Below, in pieces: positions 14,207 through 26,711 of a stretch of 64,000 nucleotides of DNA; within the stretch, counting starts at the first letter, position 1, and each line of letters begins with the position of its first letter. The position numbers and the translations under genes are program-made. The DNA is from a phage. The notes under the pieces are model-generated. The model saw only the letters and a list, made by a program, of their open reading frames with translations. It searched no databases and was not told where the DNA came from. The stretch lies in the NCBI GenBank assembly GCA_024875585.1, contig GCA_024875585.1_4107.1. One strand, written 5' to 3'.

Positions 14207-14247
14207 TAAAAATCCAGTACTGAATAGTACTGGACTAATAAGGAGTT

Positions 14248-14898
14248 ATGATGAAATCAAAATTAGGTTTGTTTTATGGAAACTACTTCATTAAACAGCG
14301 TAAATTCATAAAAAAATACTTCTCCACAGAGAAATCTAGTCCTATAATTTTTAAAAGACCAAAATATAATTTTTACTTAGCAGGTGCTAAACAGTCTAAG
14401 AAATTCATTACATTTTTAAATAAAAACAAAATTAAAGCTTCTTATGTTGAAACTAGAAAGAACTCATCGATAATTCCTGGTGATTTCATTGAATACGGAT
14501 GTTTCAATATTAAGTACAATGATAGCACATACTGTATGGATATTGATTGCAATACATCAAATCTTTTTAACATTGTAATAAATCCATCGAAACAATATAA
14601 TGTTTATGGTGATTCAATTATCAAATTAATAAAAAACAAAGATTGGTTTGATTTTGAAATAAATGTTTTAGATGAAAATTATGATGAAGTTCCAGTTAAC
14701 CCTGAAATATGTGATATATTAAACAGTTTAAAAGGTAGTAGCTACAATATACCATCTGATTTAATGTTTCAGTACTCTTTAATACATAAAGATATTGAAC
14801 ATTATATTGTGTGTGCTAAAATCTTGAATTATCTGTATGATGAATTTAAAATGAGTTCTAAAATAACAGCATATACTCTTTATAATATTTCTATATAA
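14248..14898 (+). CDS. hypothetical protein (216 aa)
   Basis: SD AAGGAG; basic N-terminus. Confidence 0.6.
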   Translation: MMKSKLGLFYGNYFIKQRKFIKKYFSTEKSSPIIFKRPKYNFYLAGAKQSKKFITFLNKNKIKASYVETRKNSSIIPGDFIEYGCFNIKYNDSTYCMDIDCNTSNLFNIVINPSKQYNVYGDSIIKLIKNKDWFDFEINVLDENYDEVPVNPEICDILNSLKGSSYNIPSDLMFQYSLIHKDIEHYIVCAKILNYLYDEFKMSSKITAYTLYNISI

Positions 14899-14911
14899 TT
14901 TAAAATATTAA

Positions 14912-14938
14912 AGCCAGTACGAGAGCACTGGCTTTAAT
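14912..14938. terminator. bidirectional terminator hairpin between convergent genes
   Basis: AAAGCCAGT-ACGAGAGC-ACTGGCTTT flanked by A/T runs. Confidence 0.5.
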
Positions 14939-14939
14939 A

Positions 14940-16085
14940 TTATTTTTTCCAAGGAAGTAACGAAGTTGGAATCTTGATAGGTATATTTGATGCAACAACA
15001 TCAGGAAAATTTGCATCTCCACAAACATACAAATTATCGATTTCGTCTATCAATAATGTATAGTTGTAACTTCTACAAAAACCACTTAAGACTCTTCCCT
15101 CTAATGCAGATAAATTCATTTCAGTGAATTGAGTGATATATGTTTCATTTGAACCAACACCACATTGACCATTAGCATTTATACCACAAGTAAGCAATTT
15201 ATTATTGTTTTGAATTACACATGATGGTCCAGCAAGGTTCGTACCTAGTTCACCTACAACATTAACTTCACCTTTTAATGATAAATTTGGGATCACTGTA
15301 CTCATTGGGACTCGAGATGTATTTCCGACACCTGCTTGCCCTGAGCCATTAGTGGATGCTACTTTAACAGTACCGTCATTAAGAAAAATATAAGATGTTT
15401 CGATTGTATTAACTGCTTGAGTAGCTGATGTTATTGACGTATCCTGTTTGAATTTAAGTACATTTGTCGTTGTTGAACCAGAGATAAATGTAGCACCTGC
15501 GTACCAATATGTTCCATCCTGGAGTACTAAACCAGTACTTCTAATTGAACACCCAGCACTTCGAACATTTTCTATATGACTATATGTAAAGGTTGATACG
15601 ATTGAAGATTCACCATTACCGAACACCCCACCAGTACCTGCACCACAGAAAAACCATTTACCGTTTTTCAAAAATACACGCATACAAGCAGAAATAACCA
15701 CACTATCAATATCACTTGCAGTTACACCAAAATCGGTAAAGAAATGAGTTATATCAATCCAATTACCACCAGTATTTGATGGGAGATGTGGAATTACAAC
15801 TCTAGTCCCTGTGTACCAGATTGTATCATCATCTTTAATAACAAGCGTACCTTGAACACCACCCCAATACCTGGTTACATTAGTATTAACAAGTGTCCAC
15901 TCATTAGATGATTCCGTTGAGCCATTACCACCTTGACCATATGATGATGAACCGCACCAGTATAAATTGCCATTTTTATTTAAATAAAATTTTGCATCAG
16001 CCGAACATTGTAATCTGTATTTGAATACAGTTTTTGGTGCTGGTGCAATATTTGCATACTTAATCATTCTTCCAAAAGGTAACAT
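14940..16085 (-). CDS. RCC1-like 7-bladed beta-propeller protein, paralogue 1 (381 aa)
   Basis: N-terminus MLPFGRMIKYAN; repeats YGQGGNG, FGNGES, GQAGVGN, GQCGVGS. Confidence 0.7.
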   Translation of the reverse strand: MLPFGRMIKYANIAPAPKTVFKYRLQCSADAKFYLNKNGNLYWCGSSSYGQGGNGSTESSNEWTLVNTNVTRYWGGVQGTLVIKDDDTIWYTGTRVVIPHLPSNTGGNWIDITHFFTDFGVTASDIDSVVISACMRVFLKNGKWFFCGAGTGGVFGNGESSIVSTFTYSHIENVRSAGCSIRSTGLVLQDGTYWYAGATFISGSTTTNVLKFKQDTSITSATQAVNTIETSYIFLNDGTVKVASTNGSGQAGVGNTSRVPMSTVIPNLSLKGEVNVVGELGTNLAGPSCVIQNNNKLLTCGINANGQCGVGSNETYITQFTEMNLSALEGRVLSGFCRSYNYTLLIDEIDNLYVCGDANFPDVVASNIPIKIPTSLLPWKK

Positions 16086-16110
16086 ATTTTCCTCCTTTAT
16101 TCATTATACT
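16086..16110 (-). promoter_or_regulatory. conserved RBS/-10 cassette (AGTATAATGAATAAAGGAGG)
   Basis: near-identical upstream block shared by all five paralogues; no clear -35. Confidence 0.45.
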
Positions 16111-16133
16111 GTATTTAACCCAATTAAGAAAAG

Positions 16134-16150
16134 CCAGTATCAAGTACTGG
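16134..16150 (-). terminator. intergenic hairpin CCAGTA-loop-TACTGG with flanking T-tract
   Basis: follows stop of 16158..17507. Confidence 0.45.
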
Positions 16151-16157
16151 TATTTTA

Positions 16158-17507
16158 TTATTGTAATGGAATTTCAGTGAGTGTTTTATATGTACTTCCG
16201 TTATACACCCCTCTCCAATATACTTTACCATCAGTACTAACCACTAATAATCCATATGTTGTAAACCCAAGAGTACCACCAACATACATAGCATCTTTGA
16301 TTCTAATACCAATGTCTTCATATGTAAATGACGCGACTGCACCCGCTTGCCATGACGGACTAGCGTAGTAATCACTATAAACACCATGTGCTTTATATAT
16401 TGATGTTGTTCCTGGTTCAAAAATTACAGTTCCACAGTAGTTCATTCGTATTTTAGTACTGGATGAAGTTGGTACATTTATACCCACGTCATCTTTTATC
16501 CCTGTGGTTAGAACGTTAAAACCCCCCGCCACACGGTTGACATCATTCTCACCGATTGAATACATACCAACGTTGTAGCCCATATAATACACACTAGAAC
16601 TTCCATTCCAGAAAGAAAAACCACCACCATTACCACAGCGATATAGTTGTGAATTTGAGCAGTACATCATACCTTCGTTTGTTGCATCAAATTCATCTGC
16701 TGTTCCGATCACAGCCACTGTAGTCCATGTTTTAATCACTTGGTTTGCACTAGCGGGTTTTTGAATACCATATCGTATATTATATCCTTTACCGACTATT
16801 GTACCATCTTCTAATTTGGCATAAAGTACAGGTCTATTACCAACAAAATACATATTATTGTGTGACATGTCTATTGTACGTCTTAATGAAACTACTTTTT
16901 TTGTCAATTGATTATCTTTAGTAAAAGACGTAAAGTAGTAATCCGATGTTGAATTGTTTATTAAACCTTGTATTGACAACCCCATATACCAGATTTCTCC
17001 CTTACTATTCAAAGATGCCAAAATACAACTATATTTTGAAGTGTATGTTGGGTTTACTGAAGTTGCTGGTCCTTTGTCATATCCACCACAGAATACCATC
17101 TCCACAACTTCACCTACGTTAGCAAAATAAGAAGATACATTGATAAAACCATTTGTTATAAAAGGTGCTGTATTTATACTTGAATGTGTGAATATCCCAT
17201 TTGCATATACACCACAAAAATGATATGAACCATCATTATCTTGGACTATTATTCCATTTGATAGTAACCAAAAATTGTTTACATTTTTTCTTACTAATTC
17301 GATTCCTGCCCCATTAGTTGGCGTTATACCAAAAGAAACATATTTTGTTTGACCAATTCCATATAAATTTCCATTTGATGCTAATATTGCACCAAACCAA
17401 TTACCACCACCATTCTTGTTATGACCCATACCTATAGAATCAAATTTCTTAACAGTAGGAGCTTGTACTTTGTTCCCATAATTCACCATTCTTCCAAAAG
17501 GTAACAT
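16158..17507 (-). CDS. RCC1-like beta-propeller protein, paralogue 2 (449 aa)
   Basis: N-terminus MLPFGRMVNYGN; Gly-rich repeats. Confidence 0.7.
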   Translation of the reverse strand: MLPFGRMVNYGNKVQAPTVKKFDSIGMGHNKNGGGNWFGAILASNGNLYGIGQTKYVSFGITPTNGAGIELVRKNVNNFWLLSNGIIVQDNDGSYHFCGVYANGIFTHSSINTAPFITNGFINVSSYFANVGEVVEMVFCGGYDKGPATSVNPTYTSKYSCILASLNSKGEIWYMGLSIQGLINNSTSDYYFTSFTKDNQLTKKVVSLRRTIDMSHNNMYFVGNRPVLYAKLEDGTIVGKGYNIRYGIQKPASANQVIKTWTTVAVIGTADEFDATNEGMMYCSNSQLYRCGNGGGFSFWNGSSSVYYMGYNVGMYSIGENDVNRVAGGFNVLTTGIKDDVGINVPTSSSTKIRMNYCGTVIFEPGTTSIYKAHGVYSDYYASPSWQAGAVASFTYEDIGIRIKDAMYVGGTLGFTTYGLLVVSTDGKVYWRGVYNGSTYKTLTEIPLQ

Positions 17508-17532
17508 ATTTCCCTCCTTTATTCATTATACT
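17508..17532 (-). promoter_or_regulatory. conserved RBS/-10 cassette
   Basis: TATAAT about 18 nt upstream of ATG, SD GGAGGGA. Confidence 0.45.
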
Positions 17533-17554
17533 ATATTTAATACTAAAAGAAAAA

Positions 17555-17573
17555 GCCAGTATCAAGTACTGGC
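17555..17573 (-). terminator. intergenic hairpin GCCAGTA-UCAAG-TACTGGC + T-tract
   Basis: follows stop of 17580..18689. Confidence 0.5.
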
Positions 17574-17579
17574 ATTATG

Positions 17580-18689
17580 TCATTTTGGTAAATTAATTTT
17601 AGTAAAGACTGCAACATCCTCGATTGCACCAGGAATTGCGTAATACGATCCAGTACTATATACATCTCCGTCTTTGGTTAATATTGATGTTAAACCATCA
17701 CTAAAAAGAACATCCCTAATCTCACTAACTTCAACGGGTAATTGTAAATTAGTAGCACTATATATTGCACCAGTTTGAGAATTGTTTAATCCCAAACCAC
17801 GGTTCGCCCCAACACCCTTCTGATATGTACTAGTAATTACCATTTGTGTAGCAGTATTTAAGGCAGGTGAATTCGTCATAAACAACGGTGAACTATTAGG
17901 CAAAGTACTTGCAGGAACTGCACGAAATGTAGTTGTATCTGAACTAAGAAAGTTTGGCGTTTGACCACATACGAAATATGATGTACCATTATAGTAATTA
18001 AATGCATTACCACCAATGACTGCATCGATTACACCAGAGCTACGTAATCCCCACGTGTTAATTTGTGTTCGGTTCCCCGTGCCATGCTGACCCCTGTCAT
18101 TCCACCCAGAACTATATAACTTATTATCTAATGTAATATACATACTGTCATTTGCATTCGTCATTACTTTACGCACATTAGTAGCACATTGAGTTAATGT
18201 GTAAATTGATGATGAACCAATACCTAAAGCACCACGATATCCATTAGCTCCTGCACCATAGAGTACTGAACTAGTGCTAAGTACAAATATTAAACCATAC
18301 GAACATACAATATTAGCAATTTCACTCACTGGTATAGCACTGGTAAACCAATTAGTTCTTTCAACTAATACTGTGCTGTAAGAAGTAGTTGTAGACGATG
18401 TGAACCAATATGTTTCCCCTGATGTCCATATAGTATTATCATTTTTAATAATAACAAGTGCACGATCACCTACGAAAAAATTAGAAACATCTGCACTTAC
18501 TAATATCCATGAAGATACCGTGTTTTTATTACCATTTCCAGATTCACCACCTTGATTTCTACCTATGTAATATAAATCATGTGAATCAGTTAATAAGAAT
18601 TGACCCTGTGTAGATGCACCAACTTTAATTATATTTTTAGGACCAGGTACAATATTCCCATAATCAAACATTCTTACAAAAGGTAACAT
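17580..18689 (-). CDS. RCC1-like beta-propeller protein, paralogue 3
   Basis: start set at conserved MLPFVRM (SD GGAG upstream); repeats GESGNGN, GALGIGS, GQHGTGN. Confidence 0.7.
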   Translation of the reverse strand: MLPFVRMFDYGNIVPGPKNIIKVGASTQGQFLLTDSHDLYYIGRNQGGESGNGNKNTVSSWILVSADVSNFFVGDRALVIIKNDNTIWTSGETYWFTSSTTTSYSTVLVERTNWFTSAIPVSEIANIVCSYGLIFVLSTSSVLYGAGANGYRGALGIGSSSIYTLTQCATNVRKVMTNANDSMYITLDNKLYSSGWNDRGQHGTGNRTQINTWGLRSSGVIDAVIGGNAFNYYNGTSYFVCGQTPNFLSSDTTTFRAVPASTLPNSSPLFMTNSPALNTATQMVITSTYQKGVGANRGLGLNNSQTGAIYSATNLQLPVEVSEIRDVLFSDGLTSILTKDGDVYSTGSYYAIPGAIEDVAVFTKINLPK

Positions 18690-18718
18690 AACTAAAATCT
18701 CCATATAATAATTATAAT
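18690..18718 (-). promoter_or_regulatory. RBS/-10 cassette variant
   Basis: TATAAT on minus strand about 22 nt upstream of ATG. Confidence 0.4.
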
Positions 18719-18732
18719 GTATTTACAAAAAA

Positions 18733-18760
18733 ATACCAGTACGTATTTCAGTACTGGTAT
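18733..18760 (-). terminator. intergenic hairpin ATACCAGTAC-loop-GTACTGGTAT + T-tract
   Basis: 10 bp stem after stop of 18764..19945. Confidence 0.55.
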
Positions 18761-18763
18761 CAT

Positions 18764-19945
18764 TTATGGTAAAATGATAGATTGTAACGAACTCATACCC
18801 AATGCTGGAACACTAGCCTGTGGTGCTGGAGAATTCAATTTTGGTGATGAAACCGCATATGACATTCCTGAACCCAAATCTGGATCAAAAACTACAGCAC
18901 AATAATTCCCACTATATATAAGTCCATTCTTGTATCCTTGTGCACTTTGAATGCATTTCGTGAACGTACCAATATCTGTCGTGGCATTTATTAAGTTCCT
19001 CCCACGATAACCGCAGGTGTATATGAAATTATCATCGCCTATGTACATACTAGAATCCCCAGAAGAACTACATAGATACGACATATAAGCACGCATGTTT
19101 TTAGGAGCAACTGACAATGTACCTGCATAGAATTTATTATTCGAACCCGTAATATCACCATCACCCAATGCACCAAAACTTCCCCAGCCAGTACCGTAAT
19201 ATCTCTTATCACTCAAAAATATAATACAGTTGTTATTACACATCTTGATTTGATATATCAATGAAGGATCAACCCCAGGGAATGATTCAGTGAATGTTAG
19301 AACAGCCGGATCAGTACTAGCATTACATTGATGATATGTATTAGTACCAGCGGACAAGATTGTTCCATTAGCTAACAGAATTCTCGCAGTACCAGTACCA
19401 GCAGTACAAGCAACTGCACTTCCTGCACTTCCGGTGTATATTTGTCTGAAAGTAAAGAAACCAACAGTTTTACTTCCCTGCCCACTCCAACCAGTATTAT
19501 CAACTCCACACGCCCATACTGAACCATCTTGCATGATCATCATTACACCAAAGCGTTCTATTGAAATATAAACAATCTTCGTTGTATCAACTGCACTAAA
19601 TCTAGAAGTTATATCAGTCCATACCTTAACACTTACCGCCGTCGCACTGGAAGTAGGATCTTCACCAGCTATCATTATCCTCCCATTGTTAGTAAGATAC
19701 ATTGTCTGACTATAACCAGTACTACAAAACTTAACACTATCAGTCTCTGGAACTTTTAACCACTCGTTGTAACGTGTTACGTTAGTGTTATTACCTAACT
19801 GATAATAGTTATTCATCCCAGATACATATAACACACCATCCTTTATTAAACTATAAGTCGCACTATAGTCACTACAGGTATAACGTGTACCCACAGGTCG
19901 CTCAACGACGTTCCCGTACTTAACCATTCTCCCAAAAGGTAACAT
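18764..19945 (-). CDS. RCC1-like beta-propeller protein, paralogue 4 (393 aa)
   Basis: N-terminus MLPFGRMVKYGN; repeats YQLGNNT, GSFGALGDGD. Confidence 0.7.
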   Translation of the reverse strand: MLPFGRMVKYGNVVERPVGTRYTCSDYSATYSLIKDGVLYVSGMNNYYQLGNNTNVTRYNEWLKVPETDSVKFCSTGYSQTMYLTNNGRIMIAGEDPTSSATAVSVKVWTDITSRFSAVDTTKIVYISIERFGVMMIMQDGSVWACGVDNTGWSGQGSKTVGFFTFRQIYTGSAGSAVACTAGTGTARILLANGTILSAGTNTYHQCNASTDPAVLTFTESFPGVDPSLIYQIKMCNNNCIIFLSDKRYYGTGWGSFGALGDGDITGSNNKFYAGTLSVAPKNMRAYMSYLCSSSGDSSMYIGDDNFIYTCGYRGRNLINATTDIGTFTKCIQSAQGYKNGLIYSGNYCAVVFDPDLGSGMSYAVSSPKLNSPAPQASVPALGMSSLQSIILP

Positions 19946-19970
19946 ATTTTCCTCCTTTATTCATTATACT
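19946..19970 (-). promoter_or_regulatory. conserved RBS/-10 cassette
   Basis: same block as 16086..16110. Confidence 0.45.
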
Positions 19971-19990
19971 ATATTTAATACAAAAAGAAA

Positions 19991-20011
19991 TGCCAGTATC
20001 AAGTACTGGCA
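19991..20011 (-). terminator. intergenic hairpin TGCCAGTA-UCAAG-TACTGGCA + T-tract
   Basis: follows stop of 20019..21167. Confidence 0.5.
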
Positions 20012-20018
20012 TATTAAT

Positions 20019-21167
20019 TCATTGTATAAATGACATATCTACTTCTGTATAATTAAGAACGTTCTGTCCAGAAATACCACCCATTACTACTATTGCAAGG
20101 CCACAATAATATAATTTTCCAGTATCCGTAAGTATAAGTGATCCAGATGGACTGCGTACCAAATCACACGAACTATTAAAAGAAGTATAAGAAGGAGTAT
20201 AGGAGTACTGATTATTATTATTACCAACACCTAATTGCCCAAACCCATTCGATCCAGAAGCATATAGAACTTCATCTGCTTTGACAATATGTGATGCCAT
20301 GTTACCAACACAAGTATATAGAGTATAAACTCCTGAACTCAATAATGTCGGAGTTTTATATTGTATATCTGTAGATGTAGAAGTACCACCTGTACCAAAT
20401 TCGTTCCCATATTGTGCACCGAACTGTTTACCACAAGCGTACAAATTATTATCCGATTTGATAAAAAATGTACTCTGATAACTTACATTAAAATCTATAA
20501 CATCCGAAGAAATCATCGTCACCCCAGTAATAGAAGTTTGATTACCCGTGCCCAACTGGTAGTAATAGTTAAAACCACAACCCCATAAAGTATTATCTTC
20601 TCGCAAATAAATGTTACCAACTGCCTTTTTAACCGAAGTTATAGTATCTACTCTTTTGAATGTGTTAAAAGAATTAATGTTTGTACCATCACCAAATGAT
20701 GATATGTTCGATATATTGTTAACTCCACAACAATACAATGTACCATCTTTTGTTATCAAATTCACCTTCATATCATAAAAACTACTCATGTATTTTATAT
20801 CAGAAACATTAACACCACTTGATGTTATCCACGTAGTACAGTCCGTCCACAAAGTTTTTCTATCAGTTACACCAGTGAATGCCTTCGTGTTACCAGTGAT
20901 AAAAACTTTTCCAGTACCTTTCTCTTCATACAATTGACAATCACTACTGTTATCTTCCAATAGAACTCGTTTAACATTCTCCGCACAAAGAATAAATTTA
21001 CTCGATGCTACACCTGTACCAGTACCCCAATTCGTCGCAGAAGATGCATACAACTTATCAGTATAAGTATCATGAAGATACATAGAATCACTGGAATATA
21101 TTTTAAAACGCCCTTCTTTCTCAGGTATAATATTCCCGTACTTAACCATTCTCCCAAAAGGTAACAT
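20019..21167 (-). CDS. RCC1-like beta-propeller protein, paralogue 5 (382 aa)
   Basis: N-terminus MLPFGRMVKYGN; repeats YYQLGTGNQ, GFGQLGVGNN. Confidence 0.7.
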   Translation of the reverse strand: MLPFGRMVKYGNIIPEKEGRFKIYSSDSMYLHDTYTDKLYASSATNWGTGTGVASSKFILCAENVKRVLLEDNSSDCQLYEEKGTGKVFITGNTKAFTGVTDRKTLWTDCTTWITSSGVNVSDIKYMSSFYDMKVNLITKDGTLYCCGVNNISNISSFGDGTNINSFNTFKRVDTITSVKKAVGNIYLREDNTLWGCGFNYYYQLGTGNQTSITGVTMISSDVIDFNVSYQSTFFIKSDNNLYACGKQFGAQYGNEFGTGGTSTSTDIQYKTPTLLSSGVYTLYTCVGNMASHIVKADEVLYASGSNGFGQLGVGNNNNQYSYTPSYTSFNSSCDLVRSPSGSLILTDTGKLYYCGLAIVVMGGISGQNVLNYTEVDMSFIQ

Positions 21168-21190
21168 ATCCCCTCCTTATTCATTATATC
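21168..21190 (-). promoter_or_regulatory. conserved RBS/-10 cassette (TGATATAATG)
   Basis: same block; extended -10-like TG. Confidence 0.45.
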
Positions 21191-21209
21191 ATATTTACCC
21201 AAAAAACAC

Positions 21210-21238
21210 TTGACACCCTTTCAGTACTGTTGTACGAT
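21210..21238 (+). promoter_or_regulatory. sigma70-like promoter TTGACA-N17-TACGAT
   Basis: divergent from minus-strand cluster; precedes family Y array. Confidence 0.45.
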
Positions 21239-21263
21239 AGAAGGAATATTAGGAGAACTACAC

Positions 21264-21491
21264 ATGACAAATACCCTTAAGTACTACCTCAATACTCTGC
21301 CCGACCTAGAGTACGGGAAGTTTCTCGCAGATAGTTCGTGGCTGATTGAGCTAAAAACACATAACAGCCCTGGATGCACCCTTATGATGAACAATGCAAT
21401 TGATACCCTTATAGTGAGTATTTTACATAGCAATATCTACGAGGATAACAATAAACAATTAACAAAAATCTTAGTACTGCTATCTCTATGA
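21264..21491 (+). CDS. family Y small protein (75 aa)
   Basis: ATG after SD AGGAGA; MTNTLKYYLNTL start; track start 21210 is TTG in promoter. Confidence 0.5.
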   Translation: MTNTLKYYLNTLPDLEYGKFLADSSWLIELKTHNSPGCTLMMNNAIDTLIVSILHSNIYEDNNKQLTKILVLLSL

Positions 21492-21700
21492 ACACTATGA
21501 GCACTGAACAGTTCTACATCAATGCACTACCAACTAAAAGTCTTCAAGAAAGCTTACTGTATACACAAAAGAATTTTAAAAACTTCAAACGTTGCCCTAA
21601 ACTACTGAACTCGTACAGGAATAATATTATAAGAAATGTTTTACAAGGAGAAGAAAGTATGCAATACTATCACATCCTTATCCTTATATTGGAGTACTAA
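21488..21700 (+). CDS. family Y small protein
   Basis: ATGA coupling; TEQFYINAL...ILILEY. Confidence 0.5.
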   Translation: MNTMSTEQFYINALPTKSLQESLLYTQKNFKNFKRCPKLLNSYRNNIIRNVLQGEESMQYYHILILILEY

Positions 21701-21701
21701 T

Positions 21702-21911
21702 ATGAATACTGAACATAAAGAATTCTACACCAAATACCTCAGTAACGAAGAACAATTGTTTCTAAGAAGTGTATCACCTGTAAGTACCAATACTCAATTC
21801 GGTAGAGATTGCTTTAATAATTGTATACGTAGTACCCTAGAAGCTATCGAATACAATAACAAAAATATTATGTACTCAGGTTTAATAGGACTAATATTCT
21901 TCTATGAATAA
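21702..21911 (+). CDS. family Y small protein
   Basis: MNTEHKEFYTKYL...LIFFYE; TAATATG junction. Confidence 0.55.
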   Translation: MNTEHKEFYTKYLSNEEQLFLRSVSPVSTNTQFGRDCFNNCIRSTLEAIEYNNKNIMYSGLIGLIFFYE

Positions 21912-22098
21912 TCATAAAGATTTCTATGGTAGTAAACTACACAAACATGAACAGCTATCATTCTCTTTAGCACCACCTATGAGAAAGGATAATCTATATT
22001 ATAATTACGATTTCAGGATGGCGACACGTTATGCAATAGAACATCAGTTCCCTGAAACTAAGTACCGCTCTATCCTGAACCTCATCTTTAAGTTCTAA
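21904..22098 (+). CDS. family Y small protein
   Basis: MNNHKDFYGSKL...LIFKF. Confidence 0.55.
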   Translation: MNNHKDFYGSKLHKHEQLSFSLAPPMRKDNLYYNYDFRMATRYAIEHQFPETKYRSILNLIFKF

Positions 22099-22145
22099 AA
22101 ACCGCACCAGGGTCCGAGTACTTTAACATAGTAAGGCTAATTACA

Positions 22146-22331
22146 ATGAATCACATAAGCTACTACTACCAACAACTATCCGACAGAGACAAGTACAGCC
22201 ACAATTCCCATGTATGGTACTACAAACGCGGCAGTATAAGAGACAAACAACATTACTTCTGTATTTCTATTAAAGAAGCACTAACAACTAAGTACACGTA
22301 CAGAGCAGTACTTAAACTAATCTCTATCTAA
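22146..22331 (+). CDS. family Y small protein
   Basis: MNHISYYYQQL...LKLISI. Confidence 0.5.
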   Translation: MNHISYYYQQLSDRDKYSHNSHVWYYKRGSIRDKQHYFCISIKEALTTKYTYRAVLKLISI

Positions 22332-22339
22332 GGAATACT

Positions 22340-22519
22340 ATGCAAGAATTCTATATAGAACATATAACCATAAAAGACCGTTTCATGTACGACACCTTCG
22401 TGAAATACTACAAACTGGGAACAAAAAGTACTAAAAATATAAATCTCAATAGCTGCATTCATTCTGCACTAACAAAAGAAAATCCCTTCAGGGAAATCCT
22501 TGCACTTGCATCTGTATAA
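22340..22519 (+). CDS. family Y small protein (59 aa)
   Basis: MQEFYIEHI...; below track cutoff; SD AAGGAAT. Confidence 0.45.
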   Translation: MQEFYIEHITIKDRFMYDTFVKYYKLGTKSTKNINLNSCIHSALTKENPFREILALASV

Positions 22520-22529
22520 AGGAATTCAA

Positions 22530-23189
22530 ATGAAACTTAATCCACACAGTAAACAATACCTTAAGCACTTTAAATACCTCAACAGTATTCAAGCAGAATC
22601 AGTTACATCATCTTATACGTATCACCCGAATATACTAAAGAAACGAAATAAAAAGAAAAAATCCAGACCTGTTCTCGTATCTAAGAACCTCAAATCGTAC
22701 TTGAAGAAAAATAATATAGCTCTTGCTTTTATTAGTATCTATAATACTGATTTAAAAGTATTGAGTACTAATACCAGCACAAAAGCACTAAAGAATGCAT
22801 CTATCTATATACACATGGATAATATCCCGTGCACTATAATTCTATCTTTCGGGAATGTATACTTCTTCGGGAATTGTAATAGCACCCATGATATCAGTAC
22901 TGCACAATTCCAAATCGGAGATATGTACTGCATGGGTTCAGAAAAAATACACGATAACATGCACTTCTTCCAAAAGCAACGTACTAACGAAACTGATACA
23001 GTACTGCAATTCCTCAAAGAATTACAAAACAAAGAATTATCCGAGGAAGAAGAATTCATGTACAGTACTGTAATCGATAATCCAGGACTCTATAAAAACG
23101 CGTACAAACTAACAAAACATGTACAGGAACTTATCAGTACTGATAAGAAATTCCATCACCTCATTACGTATATTTCAAACTATGTATAA
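22530..23189 (+). CDS. hypothetical protein (219 aa) inside family Y array
   Basis: ATG after SD AAAGGAATT; track start 22500 overlaps previous ORF. Confidence 0.55.
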   Translation: MKLNPHSKQYLKHFKYLNSIQAESVTSSYTYHPNILKKRNKKKKSRPVLVSKNLKSYLKKNNIALAFISIYNTDLKVLSTNTSTKALKNASIYIHMDNIPCTIILSFGNVYFFGNCNSTHDISTAQFQIGDMYCMGSEKIHDNMHFFQKQRTNETDTVLQFLKELQNKELSEEEEFMYSTVIDNPGLYKNAYKLTKHVQELISTDKKFHHLITYISNYV

Positions 23190-23364
23190 AGAATTCTACA
23201 AAGATAAAATCCCAATGCATCTACAACACCATATACCAAACGTTGCATTGGGCATAAAAGATCACGCAAAGATAATGTTCCAACAATGTACTAAGTACAC
23301 GCTCATATACGATGATAATCCATATATGCTGTACTACGTAGTAATGCTAACATTCAGGTACTAA
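23182..23364 (+). CDS. family Y small protein (60 aa)
   Basis: MYKEFYKDKI...MLTFRY; overlaps upstream stop. Confidence 0.55.
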   Translation: MYKEFYKDKIPMHLQHHIPNVALGIKDHAKIMFQQCTKYTLIYDDNPYMLYYVVMLTFRY

Positions 23365-23365
23365 T

Positions 23366-23545
23366 ATGCACAAATATAAAGAATTCTACCTCTCGTACCT
23401 TAATTCCGATATAGTAACATCCAATACCTTCAGTACTAAAATTATCTATAATGAAGTAATGAAAGAATGTATTAAAGGTGCTATTAACCCTAAAGATACG
23501 TATGACTTGTACTATGCAGTACTAACCCTTGTTTTCACGAAATAA
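23366..23545 (+). CDS. family Y small protein (59 aa)
   Basis: MHKYKEFYLSYL...TLVFTK; below track cutoff. Confidence 0.5.
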   Translation: MHKYKEFYLSYLNSDIVTSNTFSTKIIYNEVMKECIKGAINPKDTYDLYYAVLTLVFTK

Positions 23546-23553
23546 CACATAAT

Positions 23554-23742
23554 ATGAATAACCACAAAGAATACTACATACAATTTCTCCCCAGTATTTT
23601 TGAACACTACGCCAGATATAAAGTCCCCCTGGATAACGATTTGGCAGTACTGGGATTCAATCACTGCATAGAACGAAGTATAGAAAATAGTAATAGCTAT
23701 GAACAATTATATAACACTATCCTACTTATATTCAGGTACTAA
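23554..23742 (+). CDS. family Y small protein
   Basis: MNNHKEYYIQFL...LLIFRY. Confidence 0.6.
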   Translation: MNNHKEYYIQFLPSIFEHYARYKVPLDNDLAVLGFNHCIERSIENSNSYEQLYNTILLIFRY

Positions 23743-23743
23743 T

Positions 23744-23932
23744 ATGCACAAAGAATACTACGCAAAATATTTCCCAATGTATCTCAGAACTAATCTATTA
23801 GATAAACCTCGCGATATCAATGCACAAAACGATAAAGTGTACTTTATTATGTGCACTAAAGCATGTATACTAGATCATGACAGCTACCATCGAGTACTGT
23901 ATCATACACTGTACCTAGCTTTCGTATTCTAA
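23744..23932 (+). CDS. family Y small protein
   Basis: MHKEYYAKYF...YLAFVF; TAATATG junction. Confidence 0.6.
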   Translation: MHKEYYAKYFPMYLRTNLLDKPRDINAQNDKVYFIMCTKACILDHDSYHRVLYHTLYLAFVF

Positions 23933-23941
23933 GAGAACAAT

Positions 23942-24127
23942 ATGCATAAAGAATTCTACTTAAGCCATCTGGATCTAAACTCCCAAATGCTTATACCACT
24001 AATCCCAATAGATATCAAGGATAAGAAAAATACCGAACAATTCATTTACCATACACAGTGTGCGATCACCCCAAATTACATTCCATATGAATTGTACTAC
24101 ATTCTCGCCCTAATATATAGGTACTAA
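23942..24127 (+). CDS. family Y small protein
   Basis: MHKEFYLSHL...LALIYRY. Confidence 0.6.
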   Translation: MHKEFYLSHLDLNSQMLIPLIPIDIKDKKNTEQFIYHTQCAITPNYIPYELYYILALIYRY

Positions 24128-24128
24128 T

Positions 24129-24314
24129 ATGCATAGAGAATACTACACACAATTTGTTAAAGGGAACTACAAACATGCCGTACCCAGAACCCCTTTAAAT
24201 TCTCATGACCCAAGTACTATATTCCTGTTTAATGACGCAATACGTACAGTACTCAATACTAAAGATGAACAAGTGCAGTACGTATTCTTACTTTTACTTA
24301 TATACAGACACTAA
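24129..24314 (+). CDS. family Y small protein
   Basis: MHREYYTQFV...LLLIYRH. Confidence 0.6.
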   Translation: MHREYYTQFVKGNYKHAVPRTPLNSHDPSTIFLFNDAIRTVLNTKDEQVQYVFLLLLIYRH

Positions 24315-24336
24315 CTAATATACAGACACTAACTAA
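24301..24336 (+). repeat. 18 bp perfect tandem duplication (TATACAGACACTAACTAA x2)
   Basis: spans stop codon of 24129..24314 and reaches the next start codon. Confidence 0.8.
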
Positions 24337-24337
24337 T

Positions 24338-24520
24338 ATGAATAAAGAACATAAAGACTTCTACATAAGAAAACTAACATTCGTCCCCGTAAGAATATAC
24401 AAAGAATGCGACCCAAGATTATACCTATGGCACTTCAATGAGTGCATAAAAGATTCTATATACCCTAAGAACTATAAAGAACAATTGTGCTCAGTACTAA
24501 CACTAGTACTATCATATTAA
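24338..24520 (+). CDS. family Y small protein
   Basis: MNKEHKDFYIRKL...LTLVLSY. Confidence 0.6.
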   Translation: MNKEHKDFYIRKLTFVPVRIYKECDPRLYLWHFNECIKDSIYPKNYKEQLCSVLTLVLSY

Positions 24521-24533
24521 TAGAGATAATACT

Positions 24534-24725
24534 ATGTATAAAGAGTACTATATAAGTAAACTCAAAGAGAATGAACAAGCATGGATTAAATCTATAATAG
24601 CACTTGCATTTAATAGATATGCATTTAACAGATGCACAGAGATTGCTATAGAACCTTGTCCTATTAAAGAGAAGGCACAGTACAATCAGTACTACTATAT
24701 GTTAATGCTTATATATAGAAAGTAA
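24534..24725 (+). CDS. family Y small protein
   Basis: MYKEYYISKL...MLIYRK. Confidence 0.6.
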   Translation: MYKEYYISKLKENEQAWIKSIIALAFNRYAFNRCTEIAIEPCPIKEKAQYNQYYYMLMLIYRK

Positions 24726-24847
24726 TTCAACATAGAGACAGGGGAAGCTCCGCAGGGTAAGCATTGGACAGGCTTTAACATATGTTATATATGTTAAAAT
24801 TCAGCCTGGACAAATGCGATCACTAGGATTCTCCCCAGGCTAAACCC

Positions 24848-25088
24848 CGTAATCATATATAAACATTTAAGTAATCATTTATAATCATTGTGGTGATCAG
24901 TAGTGATTAGTATTGAGTACTAGAGTGTAATAGAGTACAGGAATGTGCACGTTTAATCAAGAACGTAGCAGTACTGATATGCCACTAAGTAGGCAGAGGA
25001 AGTCTGCCGTACTTTGTAGTTTCCAAGCTCCTTTTCCATTTTGCAAATTACATCAAATGTAATCAAAAGTAATCACGTAATGATTAGT
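24848..25088. repeat. cluster of at least 9 short (G)TAATCA / TGATTA(G) motifs
   Basis: motif recurs in both orientations in non-coding DNA; candidate protein-binding array. Confidence 0.4.
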
Positions 25089-25135
25089 ACTGAAATATTA
25101 GTTTCATCTTTTTTCAAATACCTTTTTACCCTTCG

Positions 25136-25158
25136 GGATAAATGTATTTTTATCCATT
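25136..25158. promoter_or_regulatory. inverted repeat GGATAAA-N6-TTTATCC with DnaA-box-like TTATCCATT
   Basis: 7 bp perfect inverted repeat; loose match to TTATCCACA consensus. Confidence 0.25.
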
Positions 25159-25198
25159 TACCTTTGGGGTAAAATCCCATTACCCCTTGAGGCTCCAG

Positions 25199-25300
25199 CA
25201 AAAAGTTGGAAAGTACTCCATCGTAAATATGGATCGTAAAAATTTTGGAGTACCTATGAAATAAAAGTTGGATCTTCGAAAGTTGAAATTTACGTTGGGA
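25199..25300. repeat. AT-rich repeat block (AAAGTTGGA direct repeats; GTACTCCA/TGGAGTAC inverted repeat flanking ATCGTAAA x2)
   Basis: nested direct and inverted repeats in non-coding DNA. Confidence 0.4.
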
Positions 25301-25381
25301 CATTGATGTTTTTTGGGATATAATGAGTTTTGTAGTGATGAAGTTTGTACGATTACAGTACTGAATAATGAAAGAAAGCTA

Positions 25382-25409
25382 TTGACATTATGATTCAGTA
25401 CTGTATAAT
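25382..25409 (+). promoter_or_regulatory. sigma70-like promoter TTGACA-N16-TATAAT with no obvious ORF downstream
   Basis: consensus hexamers; may drive a non-coding transcript. Confidence 0.45.
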
Positions 25410-25789
25410 GTTCTACATAGAGAGATGAGTTGCCGCAAACAATTCATTCACTCTACCTCCTGTCGTGAGACAGTACAGAAAAGATAGTTCCTCCTATGCG
25501 TGGTACATCTTTTTATAACCTCTTTTTTAGTAATATAAACAGTACTGGTATTAACAGAATGGTATCAGTACTGACTTTAATCTAATACATTATACCACCA
25601 GCACAAGCTGGTGGATTCCCTCTAACAGTATTCAGTACTACATGATAGTCTTCATCCTCCTAGGGTAACATAGTGAGGGCTATTGTGGGAGTACTGAATA
25701 CTCCTTTCAAAAGATAGAATAATGGTATAGTACCGACGGATTTTGGGCGTAGTTACCCTGGGTGGATTTTGGACGTAGATATGTCTAGC

Positions 25790-25926
25790 CCTCCAGAAGT
25801 CTGGAAGTAAAGATGGCTATCCATCTAGACGGCTAAACGGATAGATTTCTAGATGGCTGTATGGCTAGACGTTTGGATGGCTAAACGGCTAGATGGTTAC
25901 ACGTCTGGAAGTATAGACGGCTAAAT
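25790..25926. repeat. iteron-like repeat cluster (GGCTAAAC / CTAGAYGG / TCTGGAAGT units)
   Basis: at least 5 GGCTA-containing units and 2 TCTGGAAGT units in about 140 bp. Confidence 0.5.
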
Positions 25927-26104
25927 CAAAATTTTTATTTTGTTTTTCCAATAGTTCCCCTACCGCGTGAGGATATTTTTCCCCGCAGTATCTGGAGTTA
26001 GATTTTTCTGAATCTGGAATCATTATCTAATAAACTGGGGGCAATGTCAACCGCCTGGATGAATATTTTTAAAAATAATCTAGTACTGAATTTTGGGCGT
26101 AACT

Positions 26105-26126
26105 ATGCACCCGGTGGGCTTGAGTC
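26105..26126. repeat. dispersed intergenic repeat, orientation B (GCACCCGGTGGG core)
   Basis: preceded by AATTTTGGGCG box; copies at 28244, 30397. Confidence 0.45.
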
Positions 26127-26265
26127 TTTCTCGACTTGATGAAACTATTATACAGTACTAGAAAAATAAAGCAATACCCTAAACGCAAAAAAATTTAATT
26201 AATTTGCTTGCTATCCTGGGCCGTAATATGGTACTATTAGTTCAGTACTGAGAAAGTGCTTTAAC

Positions 26266-26289
26266 CTGCTAGGGTGCGGGAGTGTATCC
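26266..26289. repeat. dispersed intergenic repeat, orientation A (GGGTGCGGGAGTGTATC)
   Basis: copies at 28188, 34916, 38327, 41334, 43624. Confidence 0.45.
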
Positions 26290-26320
26290 TTTTTAAATTA
26301 TATGAATTTTGGGCGGATCT

Positions 26321-26342
26321 CGGCACCCTGTGGGTCAGTGCC
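26321..26342. repeat. dispersed repeat variant (GCACCCTGTGGGTCAGTG)
   Basis: preceded by AATTTTGGGCG box. Confidence 0.4.
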
Positions 26343-26628
26343 TTGTGTCCGGCTTATGTAGTAATTATACGCTTTTTCAGTACTGAGTCAATAGCTAAAA
26401 ACAAAAATAATTGAAAATAATTTAACGCGTTTAAACGGCCCGTAAAGCCCTGGAGTGATTGGAATGGTACAAATGTATAGCTTAGGTGTATTAATGCGTT
26501 AGAATGCGATTGAGGCCGTTTTATGGGGTGTAGTGGTGATTTGATTGATTCAGTACTGAATAATAGTACTGAAAGATAGTTCCCCTATATAGAAAGAAAA
26601 CTATTTTAAAAGTACATGTAGAAAGTAC

Positions 26629-26656
26629 TTGCAAACTATCTCAATTGGCGTATAAT
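26629..26656 (+). promoter_or_regulatory. early promoter AAAGTACTTGCAA-N16-TATAAT
   Basis: A-rich upstream, TTGCAA -35, TATAAT -10; leader hairpin at 26670..26688. Confidence 0.6.
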
Positions 26657-26669
26657 GTTTTACATCGAG

Positions 26670-26688
26670 AGCGGGAACACTTCCCGCT
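26670..26688 (+). promoter_or_regulatory. 5' leader hairpin AGCGGGAA-CAC-TTCCCGCT
   Basis: perfect stem a few nt after predicted TSS. Confidence 0.5.
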
Positions 26689-26711
26689 GCACATAAAGAG
26701 AGATTAAAACG

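Follow-up and report, generated by a model that had tools for sequence, protein, structure and literature searches.

The RCC1-like gene array

The 64-kb stretch of phage DNA analysed here (contig GCA_024875585.1_4107.1, hereafter the window) belongs to an Asteriusvirus, one of the 121Q/phAPEC6-like jumbo coliphages that infect Escherichia coli, and carries an array of five tandem minus-strand genes at positions 14940-21167. These genes (g1 to g5) encode RCC1-like family members that all open with a conserved 12-residue N-terminal peptide, which we call the tag, and each is preceded by a repeated terminator-promoter cassette. The open reading frame (ORF) list bears out the original prediction of five minus-strand paralogues, and every other window ORF of at least 150 amino acids (aa) lies on the plus strand. 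The locus matched 37 phage records, all of them 121Q/PBECO4/phAPEC6-like, and the best coverage by any record was at most 61%. In those genomes the array genes are annotated as RCC1-like 'regulator of chromosome condensation / DNA condensation protein'.

Tagged RCC1-like propellers are encoded by g1 (14940-16085, 381 aa, orthogroup B), g3 (17580-18689, 369 aa, orthogroup C) and g4 (18764-19945, 393 aa, orthogroup E), and a tagged RCC1-like seven-bladed propeller by g5 (20019-21167, 382 aa, orthogroup A). The remaining gene, g2 (16158-17507, 449 aa, orthogroup L), encodes a tagged but strongly diverged family member. The size range first given for the five proteins, 374-449 aa, is correct at its upper end only: 374 aa is obtained for g3 from an upstream in-frame ATG at 18704, while counting from its conserved MLPF start (MLPFVRMFDYGN) gives 369 aa. 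The five bodies, from residue 16 to the end, are 22-31% identical in amino acids, and their 81-nt 5' modules (the 45 nt before the start codon and the first 36 nt of the coding sequence, CDS) are 77-93% identical in nucleotides. Diverged bodies behind a shared start and 5' block had been predicted correctly, but the cassettes resemble one another without being identical, and g3 carries MLPFVRM together with a second type of cassette. Across phages, g1 is 97% identical to the copies in UE-S1 and ph0011, and g5 matches phAPEC6 gp549 at 97% and UE-S1_212 at 100% identity.

The prediction of a beta-propeller fold holds for g5, whose AlphaFold model is of high confidence (pLDDT 93.4, pTM 0.89). Its best Foldseek matches in the PDB were UVR8, the HERC2 RLD, RPGR and RCC1 (E-values 2e-19 to 1e-13), with TM scores of 0.60-0.74 over about 385 columns and 14-18% identity. 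As judged from g5, the array proteins share the seven-bladed fold and the GxNxxGQLG repeat signature with these RCC1-like domains, from which they differ in bearing the extra N-terminal tag and in having neither Ran nor another known partner in the host. To our knowledge, Ran is absent from bacteria. Bacteria do possess RCC1-like domains, an example being BLIP-II.

Four of the five array proteins matched RCC1-type Pfam models. The RCC1/RCC1_2 matches of g3, g4 and g5 were above the gathering cut-off, that of g1 was just under it (20.9 vs 22), and WD40_RLD matches (8.8e-16 for g1) always remained under the 150-bit cut-off of that model. All five proteins matched PHROG 4219, including g1 at 1.7e-95 and g2 at 8e-16. 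Seven RCC1-like blades in every protein, as originally proposed, is an overstatement for g2, which gave no match in the Pfam scan. Its AF2 model is weak (pLDDT 63), with RLDs as best fold matches at TM scores of 0.4-0.5; few homologues entered the model, confidence is low at residues 294-417, and about 150 C-terminal residues have no assigned fold. An hhalign comparison nevertheless aligned residues 1-296 of g2 to the other propellers (99%, E-value 4e-18). On this profile similarity, g2 is shown only to be a remote, diverged member of the RCC1-like family.

Transcription cassettes and gene shuffling

The cassettes follow a fixed order. Among 72 array copies from eight genomes, 60 are preceded by a hairpin, a T-run, TAAATA, three bases, TATAAT and a Shine-Dalgarno sequence. 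TAAATA occurs in all 60 of these cassettes and TATAAT in 49, with TATAAC and TATGAT among the variants. TAAATA-N3-TATAAT is found exactly five times in the window, each time 31-40 nt before an array start codon. Two types of cassette can be told apart, type 1 reading GCCAGTACTTGATACTGGC...TTAAATATAGTATAATGAATAAAGGAGG and type 2 reading ACCAGTACTGAAATACGTACTGGT...GTAAATACATTATAATTATTATATGGAGA.

All array cassettes in the window are on the minus strand. The cassette before g1 (16086-16157) consists of the g2 terminator hairpin (16134-16150), a U-run, TAAATACAGTATAAT at 16103-16117 and AAGGAGG. The cassettes before g2 (17508-17579) and g4 (19946-20018) both contain a U-run, TAAATATAGTATAAT (at 17525-17539 and 19963-19977) and AAGGAGG, and they begin with the g3 terminator hairpin (17555-17573) and the g5 terminator hairpin (19990-20012), respectively. 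The type-2 cassette before g3 (18690-18763) combines the g4 terminator hairpin (18732-18761) and a U-run with TAAATACATTATAAT at 18711-18725 and GGAG. The first-gene cassette before g5 (21168-21240) is a distinct variant with TAAATATGATATAAT at 21183-21197, and it stands back-to-back with a plus-strand TTGACA-17-TACGAT promoter-like site at 21210-21238. This g5-type first-gene cassette is kept in 121Q, G17, UE-S1, WPEC3, ph0011 and phAPEC6, whether orthogroup A or orthogroup I follows.

A hairpin with a U-run lies 3' of all five genes (-6.6 to -22.9 kcal/mol, z -2.7 to -9.6), and G17 carries ARNold-based terminator annotations at the same positions. A hairpin after each gene had been noted before; the hairpins are not all alike, since that of g1 differs and that of g3 is distinct. 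The terminal hairpin after g1 (14904-14941, -22.9 kcal/mol) is common to the array and a convergent plus-strand gene at 14248-14898. Outside the array, a hairpin with the array-terminator core CCAGTACT...AGTACTGG lies between two plus-strand genes at 14211-14236.

A promoter scan found no -35 element in the cassettes, where its position is taken by the terminator T-run (best match only 9/12). A sigma-70 promoter reading was rejected, as the scan returned no more sites than shuffled sequence (49 vs 45.3 +/- 6.3) and the poor -35 derives from that T-run. The invariant TAAATA core resembles the (T)ATAAATA that lies 35-53 nt upstream of phAPEC6 late genes for capsid, scaffold and baseplate proteins, including gp231c, gp232, gp238 and gp245. 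ATAAATA also precedes structural genes of CBB and GAP32 (CBB paper), and the regions upstream of GAP32 gp1 and CBB_144 keep TAAATA and not TATAAT. The RaK2 tailspike genes carry the element too, behind a hairpin and a T-run. Because of this resemblance we read the cassette as a probable late-type unit of the T4-like late class of the clade, with expression timing judged from the motifs. phAPEC6 gp237c is annotated as a late sigma factor, and the sigma gene lies outside the window. The lack of a -35 together with TAAATA supports the earlier suggestion that the array belongs to a different temporal class from the early genes.

The array occupies a constant slot in relatives, between 121Q_233-like and 121Q_249-like genes, and its contents vary widely. 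The slot holds five copies in the window and in ph0011, nine in UE-S1, about 12 in G17, about 13 in 121Q and in phAPEC6, 14 in EJP2 and 17 in WPEC3. In WPEC3, a tagged propeller gene (CDS115, L007 22457-23581, start MLPFVLLFDYGN) also lies beyond the left boundary gene, the 233-like CDS114. Grouping 78 copies at 50% identity or more gave 26 orthogroups, hence at least 26 in all at 5-17 copies per genome, and their order differs between phages: A-E-C-L-B in the window, A-I-E-C-F-D-P-B in UE-S1 and I-K-D-L-B in ph0011. Depending on the genome, the body of orthogroup E (g4) follows a cassette of type 1, one of type 2 or none at all.

BLASTN comparison of the locus with UE-S1, ph0011, WPEC3, 121Q, G17 and EJP2 placed all ends of homology blocks in the cassette or in codons 12-17 and none within the bodies. 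Adjacent UE-S1 blocks overlap by exactly the 36-nt tag of g4 (19911-19946). This breakpoint pattern is the trace that homologous exchange inside the repeated module would leave. The layout proposed originally, a conserved cassette plus a variable body that differs between relatives, is thus confirmed by copy number, orthogroup content, order and breakpoints. Ongoing diversifying mutation is contradicted by a median dN/dS of 0.18 over 82 pairs of orthologous bodies, a value that indicates retained function. Body divergence reflects ancient paralogy under purifying selection, with diversity coming from module exchange.

In principle the repeated 5' blocks could have arisen by misassembly or collapse of a repeat-rich region, as repeats are present and the phAPEC6 record has a duplicated end. 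We discount this almost entirely. The same organisation, with different gene content, recurs in more than 30 complete genomes sequenced independently of one another as well as in metagenome contigs, which speaks against the repeat-induced artefact that the original prediction had considered, and the cassette copies differ from one another by 7-23%. Public records of the array have flaws of their own. Three array genes in the phAPEC6 GenBank record (L009 2433-3543, 6062-7253 and 7325-8056) have no CDS call, and two are duplicated at the record ends. In the 121Q record (L003 4309-9130) several array copies are in fragments (234/235, 237/238 and 239/240) as a result of frameshifts or sequencing errors.

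The N-terminal tag and virion proteomes

The per-codon identity profile of the array copies defines the tag. Between orthogroups, nucleotide identity is at least 0.82 at codons 1-4, 6, 7 and 10-12 and has dropped to background level at codon 16; the conserved coding block thus comprises 12 codons, MLPFxRMxxYGN (one written form of the peptide being MLPFGRMVKYGNIAP). At the variable codons 5, 8 and 9, orthologues (0.60-0.69) resemble one another no more closely than unrelated copies do (0.57-0.67), which indicates that the 5' module is unlinked from the body behind it. In the window, the minus-strand tags lie at 16050-16085 (g1, MLPFGRMIKYAN, with a sharp boundary after codon 12), 17472-17507 (g2, MLPFGRMVNYGN), 18654-18689 (g3, MLPFVRMFDYGN), 19910-19945 (g4, MLPFGRMVKYGN) and 21132-21167 (g5, MLPFGRMVKYGN). 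Homology blocks to UE-S1, WPEC3, 121Q, G17 and EJP2 begin at 17473 in the g2 tag, and the g3 and g5 tags are delimited by both the per-codon profile and homology blocks.

Residues 1-20 are the sole low-confidence part of the g5 model (pLDDT 49-58 vs 93 overall), and the conserved N-terminus is therefore predicted to be an appendage outside the fold rather than a propeller strand. A consensus of M-L-P-F-[PAVGS]-[RIQ]-[MLI]-x-x-Y-G-N was obtained from 154 distinct tagged proteins, of which 124 have a proline within residues 13-20. An exact scan of IMG/VR with ATGTTACCTTTTGNNAGNATG had returned only 121Q and two chance matches inside unrelated genes, and the wider survey was hence run with a degenerate pattern. 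Synonymous codon choice is far more uniform in tag copies than in bodies: TTA for leucine reaches 99% vs 45%, CCT for proline 100% vs 31%, and AGA for arginine 85% vs 40%. In 12 of the 72 array copies the promoter cassette is missing and the gene is coupled to the one before it, yet these copies still start with ATGTTACCTTTTG..AGAATG.

The tag is also found on unrelated bodies (Kelch, ConA-like lectin, glycine-rich and RCC1+Kelch) in four phage genera. Within Asteriusvirus arrays, a 245-aa glycine-rich protein (121Q_243 type, PHROG 4474) and EJP2_508, a 298-aa Kelch propeller with several Kelch Pfam models above cut-off, both carry tag and cassette. The glycine-rich protein gave no PDB sequence match at E-values up to 10 and no Pfam match; a gp38-like polyglycine-II adhesin fold had been suspected for it, which these searches did not bear out. 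The rV5-like phage PVP-SE1 encodes a homologue of this glycine-rich body without the tag (gp018). GAP32 gp1 starts with MLPFSRIIQYGN, and Yersinia phage fHe-Yen9-04 has a coupled array whose proteins start with MLPFPIISNTN or MLPFPVIVKYGN.

The tagged genes of CBB are CBB_144 (glycine-rich), CBB_536/537 and seven in tandem, CBB_548-554, with bodies that are Laminin_G_3 (CBB_548/551), Kelch (CBB_550/552/554) or unclassified; CBB has no RCC1-like gene. CBB_144 (L017 2501-3265) lies between nrdD and nrdG of CBB, distant from the main tagged cluster, and has TTAAATA at -31. Dozens more tagged proteins, including RCC1+Kelch double propellers, come from uncultivated 355-371-kb contigs and from metagenome contigs. 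The uncultivated contigs encode tagged proteins of 667-690 aa (L022 6413-8416; L028, L050, L054, L060 and L062), and the one that was scanned, the 667-aa protein of L022, joins an RCC1-like and a Kelch propeller in a single chain.

We cross-referenced the tagged genes with published virion proteomes, in which their products are strongly over-represented. The phAPEC6 virion ESI-MS/MS (electrospray tandem mass spectrometry) list contains gp003, 005, 006, 007, 009, 010, 549 and 551 (Table 1 of that study). Seven of these eight map to array copies, and gp010 falls outside the stretch compared. The enrichment in phAPEC6 has an odds ratio of about 14 (p ~1e-5), with the number of tagged genes being approximate. 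The virion list of CBB includes CBB_144, 536, 537, 548, 549, 551, 552 and 553 (Table 4), and so 8 of the 10 numbered tagged proteins were detected, compared with 55 of 554 proteins overall (Fisher odds ratio 42, p=2e-7) and about 9% of the untagged ones. GAP32 gp1 is a detected structural protein as well (CBB paper). In Erwinia Eneladusvirus, 1-25 spectra were assigned to 41.5-kDa 'DNA condensation' proteins (8-25) and to a 25.9-kDa PE-PGRS-like protein, vs 834-1337 for the capsid protein (Table S5). So few spectra relative to the capsid protein suggest a low copy number. The guess in the original prediction that the conserved N-terminus could be a virion-targeting tag is supported by its position outside the fold, its presence on unrelated folds and its enrichment in four published virion proteomes.

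The sequence upstream of the array has several features of its own. The stretch at 21210-24725 contains about 15 consecutive plus-strand ORFs of 59-93 aa, matched in relatives by runs of hypothetical proteins of about 60 aa, and its GC skew is negative (-0.22) despite the plus-strand genes. It is followed by about 2 kb that are ORF-poor (24730-26700), and the equivalent stretch is also without annotation in 121Q, UE-S1 and G17. Short 24/16-nt repeats (CTAGATGGCTAAACG, three copies) are present at 25824-25909. Rfam and tRNA scans of the array locus and its surroundings, including 24730-26700, gave no match.

Interpretation and related systems

Taken together, we think it probable that the array provides the virion, late in infection, with a recombination-shuffled repertoire of low-copy accessory binding proteins, which a common N-terminal tag would attach. 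The hyperplastic slot, present in all Asteriusvirus genomes and with other layouts in other RaK2-like jumbo phages, would encode a swappable set of such proteins. Behind the 12-residue tag, each protein would have a short linker with proline and then a globular binding module, namely the five RCC1-like propellers here and Kelch, ConA-like lectin or glycine-rich domains elsewhere. The tag may dock every member onto one common site of the particle, in which case the virion would carry whatever mix of modules its genome encodes. Most genes would act as autonomous transcription units, using the intrinsic terminator of the prior gene, a late-type promoter without a -35 and a strong Shine-Dalgarno sequence. 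Since the terminator-promoter-RBS-tag module (RBS, ribosome-binding site) of about 110 bp is repeated before each gene, it would also serve as a homology patch for gene insertion, deletion and reordering. Because it reaches into the CDS, swapped genes would inherit both the expression signals and the attachment signal.

We are more confident of virion association and shuffling than of an external location. Most likely, the tagged proteins are displayed on the exterior of the particle, where they would act as adhesins for ligands on the host surface or in the environment, a lean based on their propeller or lectin-like folds and on cellular homologues with T9SS sorting, dockerin or Listeria-Bacteroides repeat domains. 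RCC1-like domains also occur in Pseudomonas phage tail-fibre proteins. The receptor-binding or host-interaction role that was originally proposed for the propellers is no more than an analogy. A broader reading, which we put forward tentatively, is that MLPFxRMxxYGN might be a portable, clade-wide virion-incorporation signal that loads any protein bearing it onto or into RaK2-like jumbo phage particles, and the cassette an 'integron-like' recombination joint that trades binding modules of unrelated fold while keeping expression and attachment.

Several observations weigh against these interpretations. The bases before TAAATA are AT, TG or GG in place of the TA of the late consensus TATAAATA, and a sigma-70-like TATAAT lies 3 nt downstream of TAAATA. 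MLPF was part of the search pattern outside Asteriusvirus, and some of the M-L-P-F invariance seen in the wider survey therefore stems from the pattern itself. For a permanent anchor on the outside, 12 residues is little, and the tag is similar in size to the T4 capsid-targeting sequence (CTS). The virion lists also hold clear non-structural proteins (topoisomerase, RecA-like and thymidylate synthase in phAPEC6), so some co-purification is possible, and the peptide counts of the tagged proteins are low (1-8).

These last two points would fit abundant late cytoplasmic proteins that merely co-purify with virions, in which case the 5' block could be an mRNA translation-initiation element homogenised by gene conversion, as the uniformity of its synonymous sites beyond what codon bias predicts also suggests. 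This account is improbable in our view, because the amino-acid pattern of the tag is kept across genera despite different nucleotides and upstream sequences (CCG/CCA codons, coupled genes), detection was reproduced by four independent proteomic studies covering three genera, and detection in CBB favours tagged over untagged proteins to the degree given above.

A stronger challenge is that the tag acts like the T4 CTS. The propellers would then be packed in the head via the scaffolding core, maybe in the unassigned 'inner body' of phAPEC6, and might on ejection act in the host as variable counter-defence or takeover proteins. A short tag on hypervariable, unrelated virion proteins encoded in a hyperplastic promoter/stem-loop locus matches the described internal protein (IP) loci of T-even phages, and the clade has a T4-like prohead protease and scaffold (phAPEC6 gp226c/227c). 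Set against this, (L/I)xE occurs in residues 5-40 of 32 of the 154 tagged proteins, compared with 26 of 154 for a control window, and no position is favoured. The bodies are rigid lectin-like or propeller folds of 25-75 kDa with extracellular cellular relatives, unlike the small T4 IPs; they are not basic, and the linker behind the tag, with its proline, points to a permanent tether. We consider head packaging unlikely. A processed CTS of the T4 type gained no support, since no conserved (L/I)xE site was found among the 154 proteins; an unprocessed internal-targeting role for the tag is still conceivable.

The annotated function, DNA-condensing, chromatin-like proteins that organise the 350-kb genome, appears in GenBank and in the phAPEC6, BF17 and Eneladusvirus papers. 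In its favour are the Pfam family name, the published speculation and the presence of the proteins in virions. The proteins have a median pI of 6.5 and a median net charge of -1.2, an acidic to neutral character that speaks against DNA binding of the histone kind, and their abundance is low, with 8-25 spectra against 834-1337 for the capsid protein. Their number and repertoire vary from 5 to 17 at the same genome size, CBB packages a larger genome without any RCC1-like gene, and the same tag is carried by lectin and Kelch folds. RCC1 itself is the Ran exchange factor and not a DNA-compacting protein, and the phage label derives from this eukaryotic name. A DNA-condensing role is thus rejected because of charge, abundance and distribution, and we give it very little credence.

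A widely copied but unsupported 'DNA condensation protein' label can accordingly be replaced by a testable model. Across at least four jumbo-phage genera and at least five fold classes, the 12-residue peptide is a predictor of virion incorporation, and it could be useful as a display or packaging tag in phage engineering and for assigning hairy fibres, decorations or the inner body of these particles. Therapeutic-candidate phages that are otherwise 90-99% identical vary most in this array, which makes it a leading suspect where they differ in adsorption or host range. If the portable-signal reading is true and the cargo is internal and ejected, the system would be a delivery system for large folded effectors.

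These genes are familiar. The Asteriusvirus 'DNA condensation protein' arrays (121Q gp234-248, PBECO4, phAPEC6 gp549-gp010) and GAP32 gp1 are the same genes as those described here, and their multi-copy nature and detection by mass spectrometry were already published (PMC7247149, PMC5259590). In the literature searched they are DNA-condensing by name, and we found no description there of the MLPF tag, its non-RCC1 carriers, the cassette or cassette-bounded shuffling. What is new here is the portable 12-residue tag, the presence of which predicts virion incorporation in different genera and for different folds, and the late-type terminator-promoter-tag module as a recombination joint.

Like the array, the T-even IP loci with their CTS join a short conserved N-terminal peptide to otherwise unrelated, polymorphic virion proteins, in small hyperplastic gene clusters flanked by promoter and stem-loop elements. 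The T4 proteins are small and basic and are expressed from an early promoter, whereas the array has large lectin-like or propeller bodies, a late-like promoter and no conserved (L/I)xE site. We know of no sequence similarity between the tag and the T4 CTS.

The PeSL cassettes of T4-type phages (Arbiol 2010; Comeau 2014) likewise repeat a terminator stem-loop and a promoter between the genes of hyperplastic regions, with the breakpoints of indels and replacements inside the repeat. PeSLs contain consensus sigma-70 early promoters with a -35 and an AT-rich UP element, have GGGG/CCCC stems and flank unrelated, non-essential ORFans. The array cassette has no -35, a late-type TAAATA core and the stem GCCAGTAC/GTACTGGC, and its repeat extends 36 nt into the CDS, whereby every swapped gene retains the shared N-terminal tag. 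The array therefore extends the idea of PeSL-type modular shuffling to a late-type cassette that reaches into the CDS. Having neither an early sigma-70 promoter nor a processing site, it is not classed as PeSL or CTS.

The multi-tailspike clusters of the Klebsiella phages RaK2 and K64-1, from the same clade, are also tandem paralogous virion genes, each with a hairpin, a T-run and TATAAATA followed by a TATA-like element, and their products have short conserved N-termini and divergent C-terminal bodies. The tailspike paralogues RaK2 ORF525w-534 (L033 17765-40683) form two groups by their N-termini, MxNxLIQPKGSVSKE or MSLSNLSSSN. These N-termini, the tailspike bodies of 60-120 kDa and the genomic position all differ from those of the array, and MLPF starts were not found in the RaK2 tailspike region examined. 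The RaK2 clusters are thus an analogous design only, in which a short conserved N-terminus again precedes divergent bodies within one set of tandem virion genes.

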